Assembly (NCBI GenBank): GCA_965222225.1
Contig: CBDCTK010000002.1
Span: 4,960,001-5,024,000 of the forward strand
Reading direction: 5' to 3'
DNA: 64,000 nucleotides
From: Candidatus Poribacteria bacterium
GTDB lineage: Bacteria; Poribacteria; WGA-4E; JAJDTR01
In this document: positions 37,863 to 56,433 of the stretch, piece after piece
Numbering within the stretch: the stretch's first letter is position 1
Layout of the letters: the number at the start of each line of letters is the position of its first letter
Made by a program: the position numbers and the translations under genes
The notes under the pieces: model-generated
What the model was told of the DNA's origin: nothing
The model's input: only the letters and a program-made list of their open reading frames with translations
Database searches by the model: none

Positions 37863-37947
37863 TGCCGGAGGTCGGACTCGAACCGACATGGACCCAAGGC
37901 CCGCTGGATTTTGAATCCAGTGCGTCTACCGATTTCACCACTCCGGC
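37863..37947 (-). tRNA. tRNA-Leu(CAA)
   Basis: Cloverleaf with long variable arm; CTGGA-TTCAAAA-TCCAG; GTTCGAGTC. Confidence 0.95.
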
Positions 37948-41008: not shown

Positions 41009-44000
41009 ATGAAACTGAACCCCAGCCATTTGCTGATAATCATTGCCATGCTTTGCGTGATAATAGTAGCAGGCGCAGTTTACATCGCCATTCAGAATGT
41101 GAAAGACACGACTCGCTTTACGGTAGAATCGATCTTGCCCGAAGGAACGGTTTCGCAGCGTGAGAACCTCACGTTCGCGTTTTCCGATCCGGTTGTCGAA
41201 GAGCGCTTACTCGATAAGGACCTGGACTATTCTCCGATTGAGTTTTCGCCTGCGATTCCGGGAAAATTTCGTTGGGTAGACACGGATAGGCTTCGGTTTT
41301 TTCCGGAAGTTACGTTTGCTCCTTCTACCGTATACACAGCGAAAGTGTTTCCAACTGTTAGCCACTCGCCGGATCGAGTTCTGAGCGGAAAGCGGACACT
41401 TTCCTTCGCTACCGAGCGGTTCAAGGTCAAAGAATCAAGACTGTCGTTTGAGCAAGGGGCGGGCAGAAAGAGCCGAGCAAAGATCCGTGCGGCGGTTGAA
41501 TTCAACTATCCCGTCGATCCTGCCGCACTGAAGGAAAGACTCACGATATCGTATGAGGACGGAAAGACGATTTCGTATCAACCTGTGACCGAGGAAGCAT
41601 CAGATATAATCGATCTAGAAACTGTCGAGATTGAGCGTAGCGAGGATAAACAGCGCTTTGCACTTAGGCTTGAGAAAGAATTCACATGTGTCAATGGAGG
41701 GGTTGGTCTCAAGAGCGCTTACATCAACAAAACCGCATTGGAAGGACGCGGGCACTTGATTGTCGAAAATGCAGGTGTGCGGGATAGTGGTGGCGGGCAC
41801 TATCTGGAGGTTCGGTTCAATTCAAAGGTCGCCCCTGACCAAGCACAACTGTTCCTGACCGTCGAGCCGGAGGAAAATTATCAATTGGTTTCTCACCGAC
41901 GTTATTTGCGGATTGAAGGCAAATTCGAGCCTGGCGACCAACGTACTGTAAAAATAGGTCGAGGTCTATCTGCCCAAGATGGGACAACTTTAAAGCGGAA
42001 CTTTTCAACAACGCTTACGATTCCGAACCTTCAACCGAACCTGAGATTCGTCGTCGGCGGGTTATATCTTCCTAGGGATGGTAATCTGAACCTCGGTTTA
42101 GCCACGGTTAACGTGAACAAGGTGAAGGTTGGTATTGAGAAAGTGTATGCCAACAATCTTGTTTTTCTGGCGAGTTCCCAAGGTTGGTCGCGGTGGGCGA
42201 GCAACCTTGGGAAGTCTTTACACAGCGAAGAGATTAGGATAGAGTCGGTGTTAAATGAGGAGGTCACGACACCAATCTCCTTGGCAGAATATCTGGAGGG
42301 TGACCGAATCGGTATCTTCAAAGTGACTGCCCGCGAATCGGAGAGGCGGTGGCGTTACGCAACTCAGTGGGTCATGGTAACCGACCTTGGCATAATGGCG
42401 AAGAAGACGGCAGACGAATTGTGGGTGTGGGTCAATTCACTGTCCACGTTGAAAGGAGTTGAGGACGCGGTCATTGAGGTTATCAGCGACAATAATCAGA
42501 TCCTGCTGAGCGGTACTACCAATTCCGACGGTGTTGTGAAATTCTCTTCAGTATCTGAAAAGATTGAAGGATTCGTCCCATTCATGATTACCGCGGCGAA
42601 AGGCAAAGACCTTTCCTTTATTGAGTTAAATCGCCGTAAACTGTCAACCACCAACTTTGGGGTTGCCGGTGCACCATATCTGGATAGCGGTTATGAAGCA
42701 TTCGTATACACTGATCGAGGAGTTTATCGACCTGGCGAGACTGCGAACCTAGTGAATATTGTGCGTGGAAAGGGCAACCTGACTCCACCTTCACTTCCGG
42801 TGCTGATACAGGTGTTGGCGCCCGACAAACGCATCTTTCGAGAATTTCGTTCGCAGACAGGCAGGGGAGGCGCTTTCGAGCTAAGCGTGAAATTCCCTGA
42901 ATACGCCAAGACGGGGCGGTACACTGCCAAGATTCATGTTGCAGACAACGAAATCGGGCGTGCCAGCTTTCAGGTCGAGGAGTTCATGCCCGACCGGATT
43001 AAGGTCACTCTAACGACGGATAAACCGGTTTATGCGGTGGGCGACGAGATTGCAGTTGACGTTGAGGCGGTAAACCTTTTTGGGCCACCAGCGGCCAATC
43101 GGAAAGTTATAGCTAGTTGCGATATTGAGGCAAGCGAGTTTGCACCCGAGAAGTGGAGTTCGTTTACGTTTTCTAATGCTACGTTAAAGTTCAAGAAGCG
43201 TCATATTAATCTTGGCGAGTCACGTACGGATGAATTTGGAAAGACAGTCTATCACCTTCCGATACCCTCGGAATTAAAGCCGCAATCCGCGCTGAGCGGT
43301 GTATTTGTTGCCACCGTCAGCGAACCTGGAGGACGAGCAGTCAGCGCCTACAGAGGGGTGACCATTCATCCTTATACCCATTATGTTGGAATTCGTCGGT
43401 CGCCGGAAGGTTATGCAAAGCTTAATGAGGAGACGACTATCGAATATATTTCTGTCGACAAAGATGGCATCCTGTCCGGCGGGCGAAATTTGAAGCTGAC
43501 GACTTACAAAATCCGTTGGAACTCCATTTTACGCCGAAATAGTAGTGGAAATTATCAGTATGTGTCGGAAAAACAAGCAGAAATACTTCGATCGATTCCG
43601 CTTACTTCGGTAGAAGGGATTGGCAGGTATGCGTTCGCACCGGCAGAATATGGCGAATACCGGATAGAGGTTCGGGATTTGGACTCCGGGGCGTCCGCTA
43701 CGACGGAATTTTACACCGCCGGTTGGGGTTACACGCCTTGGGCAATGGAAAATCCGGACCGGCTTGAGATTGACCTGGATAAAGCGAGCTATCAGCCCGG
43801 CGAAATTGCGAAAGCGCAGATTAAAGCCCCATTTGCCGGCAAACTCATCTTGACGATAGAGCGGGAGAAGGTATTGAGTTACCGAACGGTAACGATGCAG
43901 GAGAACACTGCTGTCATTGACATACCGATTCGGGCTGAATACAAGCCCAACGTCTACCTGTCCGCCAGTCTTATTCGCTCAACCACTTCATTGGAGAAGC

Positions 44001-46393
44001 ATTCCCCTGCCCGTGCCTTCGGTGTCGTTCCGCTTAAGTTGAACGATGACGTCAATCGATTGGCAGTCGAGATTGACGCGGTGGAGAAGTCCCGTCCGAA
44101 TCAAGAACTAGAGGTTGTCGTCCGTGTAGAGGGGCCGTCTCCAGCCAAGAGGGGAGTATACCGACTCACGGTTGCAGCGGTTGACGAAGGTATCCTTCAG
44201 TTGACAAACTTCCAGACTCCGGACGCCCACGGCTTTTTCTTTCGACGAAGGGGTTTGAATACCGACACGTTGGATCTCTATTCAGCGGTATTACCGGAAA
44301 TCGAGTCAGCAACGGGTAAGTCTAGCACTGGCGGCGGCGATGGGGTTGATGCGGGGCGAAAAAAGCGGTTGAGCACCGTCAGCGTGACGCGAGTGAAGCC
44401 TGTCTCGCTTTGGTCGGGTATTGTTACGACTGATGACATGGGCACAAGTGTCGTTCGATTCAGTATACCACAGTTCAACGGCACACTACGTTTGATGGCG
44501 GTTGCGTTCGCAGGCGATCGGTTCGGAAAGGCTCAGGAATCCGTCATCGTCCGCGATCCAATTGTTCTGACACCTACCTTTCCCCGGTTTGTATCGAGCG
44601 GCGACCGGTTCAAAGTTCCCGTGAGCGTGTTCAACGGAACGGTGGAGGACGGTGACTTTGACATCGCGCTGAGTCGGGAAGGAGCCGTTGAGATTCTGGG
44701 GGACAGCACGCAATCAATTCGTCTCAACACCGGTGAAGAGAGGCAAGTGTTGTTTGAACTTGCCGCCCAAGATGCGATGGGTAAGGTCACGTTCAACCTC
44801 TCGGCAAAGGGCAATCGCGAAAGTACACGGATGATTACAGATGTTCCAATTCGCCCGGCGACACCTCCCGTGACACAATCGGGCTACGGTGTGGTTAAGG
44901 CTGAACGCACGGCAGATTTTACTTTTCCGTCGAACTACATTGCGGGAACTGAGGAATTCGGGCTGACGCTGTCATCGTTTCCGGCAGTAAAGTTTGCCGG
45001 TGGAATCTCGTATCTTCTGCGGTATCCTTACGGGTGAGTTGAACAGGTCACGGCGGGGGTCTTCCCGCTGTTAGCTTTTGATAACATTGCCCAAACAATT
45101 GCTCCGGATCTCTTTGCGAAAGGCAGCGCGGATTATTTCATTAACGAGGGTATCGCCAAGCTAGAAAGCATGATGATGCCGGACAACTATTTCGCTTATT
45201 GGCCAGGCGGCAACTACGCGAACTACTGGAGTAGCATATTTGCCGCGCACTTCCTCGTTGAAGCGCGAAAAGCCGGCTATCAGGTTTCCGACCGCATTTA
45301 TCAGATGATGCTGGAGGCGCTGAAACGGGAAGCCAAGCACGGGGCGCGGGGGCGTAATGAACTTGAACGGATTGCCTATGCGGTTTACGTCTTGGCAGCA
45401 GCGGGTCAACCAGAGAAGAGCACCATGCTCTACTTGAAGAACAACCGATTGGAGGACCTCAGCGATTACAGCGAGTTTCAACTAGCCGGCGCGTTCGCGC
45501 TATCTGGCGACCTTGATACCGCGGTTTCAATGCTCCCAAGAGACATTTCACCCACAAGCGACGAGATGCGAGAATCGGGCGGGAATTTCAACTCTCCGGT
45601 TCGGGCTCAGGCTATCATGCTTGATGTACTGGCGGAAGTGCATCCCGACCACCCGACGGTGTCACAGCTTGTAAAGAGTTTGACTGACGCAGCATCTGGC
45701 AAAGGTCGGTGGCAAACGACTCAGGAAAACGCGTTTGCGTTCCTCGCGCTCGGAAAGATACTGAAGCAAGATATTGGAGCACAGTATACGGGCACAATCA
45801 CTATTGACGGGGAACACCTTGCGGAGTTTGGGCCAAGCGATCAACAGTATTCAAGCAAAGAGTGGGGCGGCAAGCGTGTACGGTTGAGCCTTGAGGGCAC
45901 AGGAAACAGCTACTACCAATGGCGGTCTTTTGGCGTCGAGACGGGTTCGTCTATTGAAGAGTTCGATAGGGAATTGCAGGTTAGACGCCGGTATATGTCG
46001 GAGGCTGGCGAGCCGATTGAGGACGGTGTTTTCAAGCACGGCGATATGGTTGTAGCGGAGATTTCAGTCAAGGCGCTGACCGCCAATCTGGAGAATGTGG
46101 TCGTTGTGGATATGCTTCCCGCAGGATTCGAGATTGAAAACCCGCGCTTGGAATCTCGCGCAGGTATTTCATGGCTGTCCAGAAAGCGTTTCAAGCCGGA
46201 CTACGTGGATATCCGCGATGATCGTCTCCTTTTCTTCGGCAAATTCCCGCGAAGGAAAGAGCAGAAGTTCTACTACGCGTTGAGAGCCGTTACACAGGGC
46301 GAATTCATACTGCCACCTGTCACGGCTGAAGCCATGTACGATCCGTCGAAGTCATCGGTGGCATCGGGAGGACGAATCAGTGTTGCACCGTGA
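41009..46393 (+). CDS. Bacterial alpha-2-macroglobulin (YfhM-like), 1794 aa if UGA 45035-45037 is read as selenocysteine in the thioester motif (UVEQ)
   Basis: TDRGVYRPGE, FQVEEFMPDR, AAVDEGILQLT, YPYG*VEQ, TTQENAFA, DMLPAGFEIEN, EAMYDP; the ORFs 41009-45037 and 45170-46393 are in one frame with no other stop. Confidence 0.88.
45050..45071 (+). promoter_or_regulatory. Putative bacterial SECIS element
   Basis: ACGGCGGG-GGTCTT-CCCGCTGT: 8-bp stem starting 12 nt after the UGA; loop begins GGUCU. Confidence 0.8.
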
Positions 46394-46553
46394 TGCGATG
46401 AAGGTTTCATTGACTGAATTCCGGCAACCAAATGCTAACTACCTTTATGCTCGATCTGGATTGTCAACTGCAGTGCTACAAAACCATTTGGCAATCCACC
46501 AGAGGCAAAAGCACAGCTCAATAAACCCGTTAGACGATATGGAGGAAAGGAAA

Positions 46554-47498
46554 ATGAAAAGGCAATTCTGCACGCTGAGTATGTGTTTGATCATGTTTAC
46601 AGTTACGAGTTCAATTCAAGGGAATGAGTTAAGCGACGTTGACATGGCGGAGCAGGCGAAGCATCTTATTGCTTGCTATAGGGAAGGCCATATTGATGCC
46701 TATTATACCTTGAATGCTACAGGCGGCGAGGGGTTAGTTCCAGTGTTTCTCGAAGCGCTGCGTGATTCTGACGCGAACGTTAGGATTCTCGCCGTAAATC
46801 AACTCACAAACTATAGGAAGGTAGAGACGATTGGACCGATTTCGGATGTGCTCAAGCACGACAGTCATGAAGGGGTGCGTGCAGCGGCGGCAACAAGTTT
46901 GGGGCAGCTTGGATATCGTGAGTCGAGTCCTTACTTGCTTGATGCCTTGAATGACAAATCGGCTAGCGTGGTGGAAGCGGCGATACGAGGTTTGGGATGG
47001 CTGAAATCTCGTGAAGCCGTACAACCATTGAAAGACAAACTGCGCGGCGACAACGAAAAGGACTGGGTAATTCAGCGCGCTGCCTCGGACGCCTTACAAG
47101 ACATTACTGGCGAGGACTGGGGTCAAGGTATACACGAATTCCCCCCGGAACTCAGAGTGCGTGATGCTGATATCACGCTTGAAGCCTATCAACGCGCGAT
47201 GGAATATCTCGGAGAGAGGCCTCCAGAGATGATTGATACCACCATCACTACGGAGGAGTTAACTTCGGCGGAGGGGTTTTACGTCGGGTATTGGAATCGC
47301 CTGACGATTATTGAGGGGTATCATTTGAAACAGAACCTACAAGTTTGCAAAGGTGCGCTGCAGCAAACATTGCAATCGAGGAAATTGAACGAAGTGATAG
47401 AGGATATAGAGGATGATGTCATGAACGCGCAGAAGGAGTATGATGAGGCGTGACAGAAATACGAGGATTTCTTGGCTAATAGTGTTTGGGCGGATTGA
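46554..47498 (+). CDS. Exported HEAT-repeat protein, paralogue 1 (premature TGA at 47451-47453, 15 codons before the conserved end)
   Basis: Signal peptide; PBS-lyase HEAT repeats; frame continues QKYEDFLANSVWAD as in the paralogues. Confidence 0.75.
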
Positions 47499-47655
47499 TG
47501 TACCCCCGGTAGGAAAGTATTGTAATTCATGTTGTTCCGATTTTAAGATCCTGCAGTAAACGGAACTATGCGTAGGGAACACAGATCTGCGTTCCCTACA
47601 GATACAATTGTAAAACGAAAAACATAACGTGTTGTATGCGCAAATGGAGGCAACT

Positions 47656-48594
47656 ATGATGAAACAGCTACTAACGTTGATGAGCGCGTGCTTTATATTC
47701 TCTCTAATGGTACTCTCGGTTCGGGGGAGTGGGCGACCCGACGATGACATGAAGAATCATGTGAAAGAGCTTATTGGCCGCTATAAGCAGGGGGATCGTG
47801 AAGCCTACGACCTACTGATTGTAAACATTGATGAAAAATTGTTTCCGGTGTATCTTGAGGCGCTCAAGGATGCTGACGCCAAAGTTAGAAGGCTTGCGAT
47901 TAGGCAACTCGCGAGGTATAAGAAAAAGGAAGCTATCGCACCGATAGGACAGTTGCTTGAGAGCGACGCCAGCGAAGGCGTGCGTCGGGAGGCAGCTTCA
48001 AGATTGGGGCATTTGACCTACCCAGAGTCTAGTCGACTTCTGATTGATGCGCTGGACGACGACTCACAGCGTGTGGTGGAAGCAGTGATACGAGCGTTAG
48101 GTAGGTTGAAGTCTAAGGAAGCGATTGAGTCGTTGAAGGAGAAGCTGAAAGGCGACAATGAAAAAGACTGGGAAATTCAACGCGCTGCTGCTTACGCGCT
48201 GCGAGTCATCACTGGTATGGATTGGAGTGAAGGTATACATGAAGTTCCGCCGGAATACCGGACGCGTGATGAAGAGTTTACATTTGAAGCATACGAACGC
48301 GCAATTCGCTACTTTTCTAGATCTGTGCCTACTATGATTGACACGACAATCATAATTGATGAGTTGATCCACAGCGAGATGTTCTATATCGGCGGTCCAA
48401 ATCGTTTTACCATTCTTCAGGGATTCCACCTAAAGCAAAATGGACAACTACAGGAAAAAAACCTTAATCAGGCTCTGTTAGCACAGAAGTTAGGTACAAT
48501 GACGGACGATGATGTGACCAAAGCTAATGCCGCGTACGATCAAGCGCAGAAAAAGTACAAAGATTTCTTGGGGAAAAGTGGATGGGCGGATTGA
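47656..48594 (+). CDS. Exported HEAT-repeat protein, paralogue 2
   Basis: LEALKDADAKVRRLA-type repeats; ends GWAD. Confidence 0.85.
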   Translation: MMKQLLTLMSACFIFSLMVLSVRGSGRPDDDMKNHVKELIGRYKQGDREAYDLLIVNIDEKLFPVYLEALKDADAKVRRLAIRQLARYKKKEAIAPIGQLLESDASEGVRREAASRLGHLTYPESSRLLIDALDDDSQRVVEAVIRALGRLKSKEAIESLKEKLKGDNEKDWEIQRAAAYALRVITGMDWSEGIHEVPPEYRTRDEEFTFEAYERAIRYFSRSVPTMIDTTIIIDELIHSEMFYIGGPNRFTILQGFHLKQNGQLQEKNLNQALLAQKLGTMTDDDVTKANAAYDQAQKKYKDFLGKSGWAD

Positions 48595-48741
48595 TTCCCA
48601 TACTCCGAATGGCAAGGCATTGTCATTATGAGATTATTTTAACAATAAACTAGCGGGGGCGATGACCGCAGTCCCGGGAGGGTTACAAATTCAATCGCAT
48701 CAGGTGGGAAAATATTCATACGCCGAAAACTGGAGGAAATA

Positions 48742-49680
48742 ATGTCAGAAAAACTGTTGATTTTCTTGGGCACATGCTTGTTAAGCTTTTCTATTACGTC
48801 TTCAATCCAAGGAAACGGGGCGCTGAAAGGTGAAGACATTGCGGCACAGGCAAGAGAGCTAATCGTGCGTTATGGGCAGGGGGATTCGGGAGTCTATTAC
48901 AGGATGGCAAACACTAGAGATGATAGGTTGGTTCCGGTGTTTCTTGAAGCACTCAAAAATTCCAACTCCAGGATAAAGATTCTTGCGATAAGTCAGCTTC
49001 GAAAATACGGAAAAAAAGAAACTATCGTCCCCATGGTGGAATTGCTCAAACACGACGAAAATGCCGACGTACGTGCGGCAGCCGCTGCCAGTTTAGCTCG
49101 GTTTCGCACCGCGGAGTCAAGCCAAGATCTCCTCAATGCTCTACATGATGAGTCCCCCAGGGTAGTAAGGGCTGCGATAAGGGTATTGGGACACCTAAAG
49201 TCAAAGGAAGCGGTTGTACCGCTGAAGGCGAGATTGTCCATAGATAACGAAAAGAATTGGGCAGTTCGGCGGGCCGCTAAAGACGCATTGGAATCCATCA
49301 TTGGTGCTGACTGGAAGCGAAGCATGCGCGAGATTCCGCCCCAGTTTCGAGCACGAAATGAAGATATCACGCATCAAGCCTATGAGGCCGCGATGGAGAA
49401 TCTGGGTAGCGCGCTTGGTAAAATTAACAGAGCTGGCTCAATAAGGGAACTAAGTGTAGATGAGGAATTCTTACGCGACTATGGAAAGACGGTAATTGTT
49501 ATTGAAGGATACTACCTGAAACAGAACGCAGAGATTTACAGAAAGGCGCTTGAAAACGCACGGCTTTCAGTGGAATTAGGTGAGATGACGAATGATGATG
49601 TGACAAAAGCCGAAGCCACTTACAATCAAGCCCAGTCTAGGTACGAGGATTTTCTGGCAAACAGTGTTTGGGCGGATTGA
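48742..49680 (+). CDS. Exported HEAT-repeat protein, paralogue 3
   Basis: DENADVRAAAAASL-type repeats; ends SVWAD. Confidence 0.85.
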   Translation: MSEKLLIFLGTCLLSFSITSSIQGNGALKGEDIAAQARELIVRYGQGDSGVYYRMANTRDDRLVPVFLEALKNSNSRIKILAISQLRKYGKKETIVPMVELLKHDENADVRAAAAASLARFRTAESSQDLLNALHDESPRVVRAAIRVLGHLKSKEAVVPLKARLSIDNEKNWAVRRAAKDALESIIGADWKRSMREIPPQFRARNEDITHQAYEAAMENLGSALGKINRAGSIRELSVDEEFLRDYGKTVIVIEGYYLKQNAEIYRKALENARLSVELGEMTNDDVTKAEATYNQAQSRYEDFLANSVWAD

Positions 49681-51136: not shown

Positions 51137-51222
51137 GCCGGGATGTCGGAATTGGTAGACGAGCTAGATTCAGGATCTAGTGGGCATTATTGCCCGTAGG
51201 GGTTCAAATCCCCTTCCCGGCA
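51137..51222 (+). tRNA. tRNA-Leu(CAG)
   Basis: CTAGA-TTCAGGA-TCTAG anticodon arm; long variable arm. Confidence 0.95.
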
Positions 51223-55966: not shown

Positions 55967-56043
55967 GGTGGGTGTAGCTCAGGCGGTAGAGCGCTTGACT
56001 GTGGATCAAGTGGTCGTGGGTTCAAATCCCATCACCCACCCCA
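55967..56043 (+). tRNA. tRNA-His(GTG)
   Basis: CTTGA-CTGTGGA-TCAAG; G-1 and encoded CCA. Confidence 0.95.
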
Positions 56044-56348: not shown

Positions 56349-56433
56349 GGGCGGGTGTTGGAATTGGTAGACAAGATAGATTTAGGATCTATTGGGGTTA
56401 TTCCTCGTGAGGGTTCGAGTCCCTTCTCGCCCA
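56349..56433 (+). tRNA. tRNA-Leu(TAG)
   Basis: ATAGA-TTTAGGA-TCTAT; long variable arm. Confidence 0.95.

Follow-up and report, generated by a model that had tools for sequence, protein, structure and literature searches.

The bacterial selenocysteine insertion sequence (bSECIS) of formate dehydrogenase genes is a stem-loop that immediately follows the UGA codon within the coding sequence, and the loop of the element in Escherichia coli fdhF contains GGUC. In the catalogued prokaryotic selenoprotein families, a reactive Cys is paired with selenocysteine (Sec), the protein contains one Sec, the open reading frame (ORF) includes a bSECIS, and the SelA/SelB/SelC/SelD machinery is present. According to the main text of a 2026 review, 119 prokaryotic selenoprotein families and subfamilies are recognized, most of the known families being redox or metal-binding proteins, and the bSECIS consensus comprises an apical loop of 3–9 nt, an upper stem of 4–16 bp, a G within the first two loop positions that is mostly followed by G or U, a UGA-to-loop distance of 16–37 nt, and a minimum free energy (MFE) of −7.5 kcal/mol or lower, from which some bacterial elements deviate (PMC13188914). 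Type I alpha-2-macroglobulins (A2Ms), represented by E. coli ECAM/YfhM and Salmonella SaA2M (PDB 5a42, 4ziq, 4rtd, 4u48), have an MG/BRD/TED/MG10 architecture, which is shared by the product of a protease-trap gene of a sponge symbiont, a Candidatus Poribacteria bacterium, located in the 64,000-nucleotide stretch analyzed here (positions 4,960,001–5,024,000 of the forward strand of contig CBDCTK010000002.1; hereafter, the window). This macroglobulin gene differs from those of the type I A2Ms in that a UGA codon, a candidate for Sec, stands in place of the thioester Cys, and in that three HEAT-repeat protein genes lie downstream. A SECIS-like hairpin on the + strand (45050..45071) is very probably a functional bSECIS that inserts Sec at this UGA, as judged from sequence comparison; if so, selenium would replace the sulfur of the reactive thioester.

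The bacterial A2M gene occupies 41009..46393 of the + strand (5.4 kb), as delimited by its ORFs and their read-through translation, Pfam matches, and alignment to the Salmonella and E. coli A2M structures. With the UGA at 45035 decoded, read-through translation gives a product of 1,794 residues with a single internal TGA; the genuine stop of the gene is likewise TGA (46391–46393), and TGA is therefore not reassigned in this organism. The protein contains the Pfam domains bMG3, MG2, bMG5, bMG6, A2M_BRD, A2M, and bMG10, all over the cut-off, and no NCBIfam model matched it. Its C-terminal 652 residues align end to end with 4u48, 4rtd, 5a42, and 4ziq (E-values of 7e-49 to approximately 1e-48), and its YPYG-x-xEQ aligns with YPYGCLEQ of the type I A2Ms. 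In the alignment with 4u48, AYPYGCLEQTTSGLFP lies over RYPYG-[TGA]-VEQVTAGVFP, which places the internal TGA exactly at the thioester Cys; the UGA (45035..45037, +), in the context ...TAC GGG TGA GTT GAA CAG GTC ACG GCG GGG GTC TTC CCG CTG TTA..., is aligned with the Cys of CLEQ in 4u48 and with the TGY Cys codons of 31 orthologues, and it is conserved in the clade of TGA-bearing genes described below. The CxEQ thioester motif thus appears as U(TGA)-V-E-Q, with the Glu and Gln retained and the UGA codon in place of the Cys. The RDDR and ExMY motifs, which in ECAM and SaA2M contact and shield the thioester domain and guard the thioester pocket (PMC4498604), are kept in the translated C-terminal MG domain as DIRDDRLLFF and AEAMYDP. 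Because the Glu and Gln of CxEQ, RDDR, and ExMY are all retained, the product is predicted to be a macroglobulin with a Sec-Gln selenoester, and insertion of Sec would be required for it to work as a type I member. A 407-amino-acid (aa) ORF (45170..46393, +) that begins at the first in-frame ATG after the UGA is the C-terminal part of this macroglobulin; position 45170 is also the earliest in-frame ATG, GTG, or TTG 3′ of the UGA, and the 44 intervening codons align with the Cys homologues.

The UGA is separated from the base of the hairpin by a 12-nt spacer (45038..45049, +) that encodes V-E-Q-V and in which synonymous sites are free to vary in 10 same-genus orthologues. The hairpin can be read with a hexaloop, as ACGGCGGG (45050–45057), GGUCUU (45058–45063), and CCCGCUGU (45064–45071) with 8 pairs including one G·U, or, as folded by ViennaRNA, with an extra ninth pair (G·U) that gives a 9-bp stem (5′ arm 45050–45058, 3′ arm 45063–45071) and a GUCU tetraloop (45059–45062). 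The anatomy given in the original prediction, namely an 8-bp stem with one G·U, a 12-nt spacer, and a loop 20 nt from the UGA, matches the sequence exactly. The hairpin agrees with the bSECIS consensus in all four constraints, having a loop of 4 or 6 nt and a stem of 9 or 8 bp, a loop start of GU or GGU, a UGA-to-loop distance of 21 nt (tetraloop) or 20 nt (hexaloop), and a fold energy of −14.0 kcal/mol for the 22-nt hairpin alone (ViennaRNA). Of 6000 random genomic TGAs, just 1.0% had a fold as stable as this at +9 to +50. When the same peptide was recoded with the codon usage of the window, 78 of 5000 versions were as stable as the hairpin, and a stem of SECIS geometry as long as that observed occurred in 43 of 5000 synonymous recodings.

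In the genome, selA, selB (C2:1591731-1593623, its product having C-terminal winged-helix domains), and the tRNA-Sec gene form one cluster at C2:1590238-1593758, and all three exceed their curated cut-offs; the tRNA-Sec gene is the model match at C2:1593669-1593758. Two classical selenoprotein genes are also present, each with one in-frame TGA: selD (VECAG-U-ASKLD), in which the UGA is followed by CUGGAUCC-GGG-GGAUCUGG, and an fdhA-like molybdopterin enzyme gene (NCSRA-U-HAPTV; G000:C2:54841-56112, − strand), in which it is followed by GGUUGCC-GGUCU-GGCAGCC. Counted from the U of the UGA, the loop starts at nt 21 in fdhA, at nt 20 in selD, and at nt 23/24 in the macroglobulin gene (G-GUCU-U). 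Comparison of the fdhA and macroglobulin loops shows that the GGUCU sequence of the new hairpin also occurs in the loop of a bona fide SECIS of the same organism, which bears out the comparison with the genome's other SECIS elements that had been proposed at the outset. Both elements are stem-loops that lie within the coding sequence and directly follow the UGA, both have a stem of 7–9 bp and a loop that starts with GGUCU 18–21 nt after the UGA, and both fit the consensus. They differ in that the host gene of the macroglobulin hairpin does not encode an oxidoreductase, its closing pair is G·U, so that the loop is readable as GUCU or GGUCUU, and neither a bulged U nor a supported lower stem was seen in it. 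Genome-wide, 327 hairpins have a GGUC-initiated loop and a stem of at least 6 bp; 80 of them have a TGA 16–30 nt upstream, which is approximately the number expected by chance, and in 7 of these the TGA is in-frame inside an ORF. Long ORFs on both sides of the TGA accompany such hairpins in the macroglobulin gene, in fdhA, and in one member of another candidate family. Within the window itself, four sub-threshold matches to the tRNA-Sec model (31–36 bits against a cut-off of 47; approximately 37864–37947 on the − strand and 51137–51221, 55967–56040, and 56349–56432 on the + strand) are probably ordinary tRNA genes.

In a set of 41 related genomes, one TGA inside the gene was present in 10 of the 10 members of the genus (85–88% aa identity), and no TGA inside the gene was found in other genera. 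In a phylum sample of 176 genomes, 142 of which had a match (150 matches listed and 18 not), the TGA-bearing genes among the matches listed were those of the same 10 genus members, of genome G059 (one TGA), and of genome G060 (two TGAs and one TAG). A pattern scan independent of this sample, in which one genome was used for each of 185,579 species, gave 20 matches, consisting of 10 Poribacteria macroglobulins (8 genus-like genes and copies matching those of G059 and G060), 4 members of a distant macroglobulin family, and 6 sequences that were rejected as showing no A2M similarity beyond the motif, approximately 9 being expected by our own estimate. A scan of metagenomes with the pattern gave 9 matches, among which there was no new Poribacteria form; 2 were of the Chloroflexi type described below, and 7 were discarded because they either showed no significant similarity to A2Ms or matched over a very short length at the motif.

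All 12 TGA forms contain YPYG-TGA-[VI]EQ followed by a hairpin. The core GCGGGGGUCUUCCCG is invariant across the 10 genus members, in all of which the loop starts with GU or GGU; the hairpin of G059 is AGCGGG-CGUGUU-CCCGCU, with G as the second loop nucleotide, and that of G060, the weakest among the TGA forms, is CGGGA-GUUU-UCCCG, with a loop that starts with GU. For comparison, the Cys set was composed of the 31 orthologues that were returned as loci from more than 130 matches, and no hairpin comparable to that of the macroglobulin gene was found in these 31 sequences. The longest stem of SECIS geometry was 2–6 bp in the Cys orthologues versus 5–9 bp in the TGA forms (at least 8 bp in 10 of the 12), and the fold energy at +9 to +50 ranged from −0.4 to −12.1 in the former versus −8.7 to −16.4 in the latter. 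The occurrence of the hairpin in 12/12 TGA-bearing and 0/31 Cys-encoding orthologues supports the original prediction of a SECIS rather than a simple nonsense mutation. In the 3′ arm, the codons TTC and CCG are each used in 12/12 TGA forms versus 6/31 and 14/31 Cys forms, respectively, counts that are phylogenetically non-independent. The expectation that a TTS-type sequence follows CxEQ in Cys homologues also proved accurate: all 31 Cys orthologues have TGY at the site and a tripeptide of this type (TTS, TSS, or ATS), then K, R, or M, and then VFP, whereas the TGA forms have [VI]TAG, TTAG, or TTSG after the motif. A quick maximum-likelihood tree (43 sequences) places the 12 TGA forms in one clade (SH-aLRT 98) that is sister to the Cys forms of family f3; a single Cys-to-Sec change therefore suffices. 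The G060 copy (L070/L066) carries two further nonsense codons, a TGA at −184 (Thr in the window protein) and a TAG at +416 (Pro), and is apparently decaying. Outside the stem, the region of codon +13 (window positions 45074–45076) reads PLL[AT]F in the TGA forms versus PLL[YS]F or PMLYF in the 31 Cys forms, a second amino acid difference that tracks Sec.

The same-genus sequences are well diverged (mean dS of approximately 0.8), and dN/dS is 0.104 in the 708 aligned codon columns 5′ of the TGA, 0.083 in the 462 columns 3′ of it, and 0.084 in the 44 codons from the UGA to the first possible restart codon. This purifying selection on codons that precede any restart means that translation must pass through the UGA. 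At codons +6 to +11, which form the stem and loop, the mean pairwise codon difference is 0.033 versus a gene mean of 0.35, and synonymous variability is lower there than in any other of the 150 fully usable six-codon windows. Across 10 distinct sequences, 96.3% of the stem cells are paired; four of the eight stem pairs are invariant, three show one-sided, pair-preserving changes (A-U/G·U, G-C/G·U, and G·U/A-U), and one departs by an unpaired cell only. Two RNA libraries from a single study yielded contigs that bridge the UGA and the hairpin (44495–45696 and 44987–45696), with no differences over 45035–45071; such libraries may contain DNA, and starts, ends, and expression level are not readable from contigs, so that they provide a weak hint. 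In RNA run X17, no contig was found over 45021–45147, and in X19, none was found beyond 44944.

A TGA at the same Cys was also identified in a distant macroglobulin family that is 20–22% identical to the macroglobulin of the window and contains MP[YF]G-U-FEQTTSVTFPN. The TGA form of this family is present in 11 genomes of one Chloroflexi order and in 2 metagenome contigs, and 4 further matches have no internal stop (loci of the family: L061, L062, L065, L099–L108, and L114 in genomes; L089 and L092 in metagenome contigs). All 13 Chloroflexi-type TGA forms share the hairpin ACGUC-GGU-GACGU, with the loop at nt 20, which is absent from the one alignable Cys form of the family, and selA was found in 2 of 3 Chloroflexi genomes tested. 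On this sequence comparison, the Chloroflexi macroglobulin clade would have acquired the TGA and a GGU-loop hairpin independently of the Poribacteria, and this recurrence of the pattern in an unrelated clade counts in favor of a SECIS in the macroglobulin gene of the window. A Planctomycetota metagenome-assembled genome (MAG), L067, also encodes a member of the distant family with the TGA at the same position, followed by a different stem of 10 bp and a loop of 14 nt; a search of this genome with TIGR00474 did not recover selA, and the L067 gene may be a fossil or may come from an incomplete MAG.

In the proposed mechanism, a ribosome reaching the UGA at 45035–45037 would encounter, 12 nt downstream, a stem-loop bound by the C-terminal domain of SelB in complex with Sec-tRNA(Sec); SelB would contact the apical G/U loop, Sec would be inserted at residue 1343 instead of termination, and translation would then run for 451 further codons. 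The product would be a full-length, periplasmic-type alpha-2-macroglobulin with Sec (UVEQ) in place of the thioester-forming Cys (CxEQ). We infer the binding of SelB, the insertion of Sec, and the formation of a selenoester between Sec and the Gln at the third residue after it. A number of observations weigh against this interpretation. A dinucleotide shuffle on 61 nt was not significant (z = −1.52; 15 of 200 shuffles were as stable), and a lower helix considered beneath the hairpin (GAGCA/UGCUC) was rejected, as 84% of its cells are paired and this level was reached by 207 of 500 shuffles. An Rfam scan of 44900–45200 returned no relevant family at E-values up to 10, a null result that weighs little because sequence-based models give poor coverage of bacterial SECIS elements. 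In the covariation check suggested with the original prediction, the changes in the eight stem pairs were one-sided and pair-preserving, with no compensatory two-sided covariation, and shuffle controls for upper-stem covariation were uninformative (500/500). The loops of G059 and G060 differ (CGUGUU and GUUU), and their stems are only 5–6 bp. The presence of selA is non-discriminating, since it is phylum-wide (163 of 176 genomes over the cut-off). A simple terminator scan flags 45050–45071, with the tail TAGCTTTTGA. The argument that the codons after CxEQ were remodelled to host the SECIS is less strong than first put, because the Gly at +7 is not exclusive to Sec forms, being found also in the Cys-containing Salmonella protein (TTSG), and it is the only residue changed in G060.

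These points bear on three other explanations. The UGA might be read through independently of Sec, with a standard residue supplied by a near-cognate tRNA (for Trp or Cys) and the hairpin acting only to delay the ribosome or to impede release factor 2; the purifying selection downstream is compatible with this, as it shows continued translation and not the identity of the residue, and no covariation ties the hairpin to SelB. However, the UGA lies exactly on Cys, the classical partner of Sec, the hairpin agrees with a bSECIS in its G/U loop and its spacing and matches the cell's own fdhA element, the full Sec machinery is encoded in the genome, and Trp at the thioester site would destroy the function implied by the conserved RDDR/ExMY pocket motifs, so that read-through of this kind appears very unlikely. 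It is a little less probable still that Sec is inserted while SelB reads another element, the hairpin being conserved for mRNA stability or for pausing during folding of the thioester domain. The differing loop letters in the two distant TGA forms would suit such an arrangement, as would the existence of off-consensus bacterial SECIS elements noted in the review (PMC13188914), but the first 60 nt 3′ of the UGA showed no other conserved structure, and among the orthologues compared, the hairpin is confined to the TGA-bearing genes.

The remaining explanation, that the UGA is a true stop in a split or dead gene and the hairpin either a terminator of the intrinsic type or a G+C-rich stem formed by chance, draws on the terminator scan, the weak shuffle z-score, and the two further nonsense codons in the TGA-bearing relative G060. 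It must nevertheless be reconciled with the persistence of the TGA in 11 otherwise intact orthologues at a mean dS of approximately 0.8 and a downstream dN/dS of 0.08, with a constrained stretch that includes 44 codons beyond the reach of any ATG, GTG, or TTG restart, and with RNA-library contigs that continue through the site. Furthermore, the T-rich tail expected of a terminator is present in only 6 of the 12 TGA-bearing orthologues, and the T run corresponds to a conserved Phe codon. A true stop is accordingly regarded as very improbable, by a small margin the least favored of the three, and the hairpin is best interpreted as the bSECIS of the macroglobulin gene.

As a SECIS, the element itself would be ordinary; what would be new is the selenoprotein it serves, in which Sec would serve in an acyl-bond warhead instead of at a redox site. 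The value of the hairpin is that it marks the UGA at the thioester Cys as a programmed Sec codon and not as damage. The macroglobulin would share the features of the catalogued selenoprotein families listed above, but its Sec would form an acyl (ester) bond open to attack by the amines of proteases. A selenoester is expected to form and to react faster than a thioester. This raises the question of why a cell pays for Sec in a non-redox site. A broader proposal, with the arguments for and against it about evenly poised, is that this protein is a protease-trap warhead with an internal Sec-Gln selenoester, the first natural protein selenoester and a non-redox use of selenium in acyl transfer, which arose at least twice independently, in Poribacteria and in Chloroflexi, each time with its own SECIS carved from the codons after CxEQ. 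A macroglobulin containing Sec was not described in any paper found by literature searches, and the terms macroglobulin, thioester, A2M, MG2, PF00207, and PF01835 do not occur in the main text of the 2026 review (PMC13188914). Gene callers split such genes, here into ORFs of 1,342 and 407 aa, and selenoproteins of this kind are therefore invisible in the standard annotation of sponge symbionts and groundwater Chloroflexi.

Directly 3′ of the macroglobulin gene, the three HEAT-repeat protein genes (357, 321, and 312 aa) are arranged in series on the + strand at window positions 46380–49680, and the first of them overlaps the macroglobulin stop. Elsewhere in the genome, four paralogous ORFs of approximately 390 aa contain DESC-TGA-[AG][NS]GK (G000:C2:3546643 on the + strand and 2766758, 2765417, and 2764073 on the − strand; loci L097 and L098), three of them in tandem. 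One of these paralogues was scanned against Pfam and matched no family. In each case the TGA is followed by a hairpin of 7–8 bp with the loop at nt 26–27 (GGUC, AGGU, or AGUU), and the four sequences are candidates for uncatalogued selenoproteins with a CU motif.

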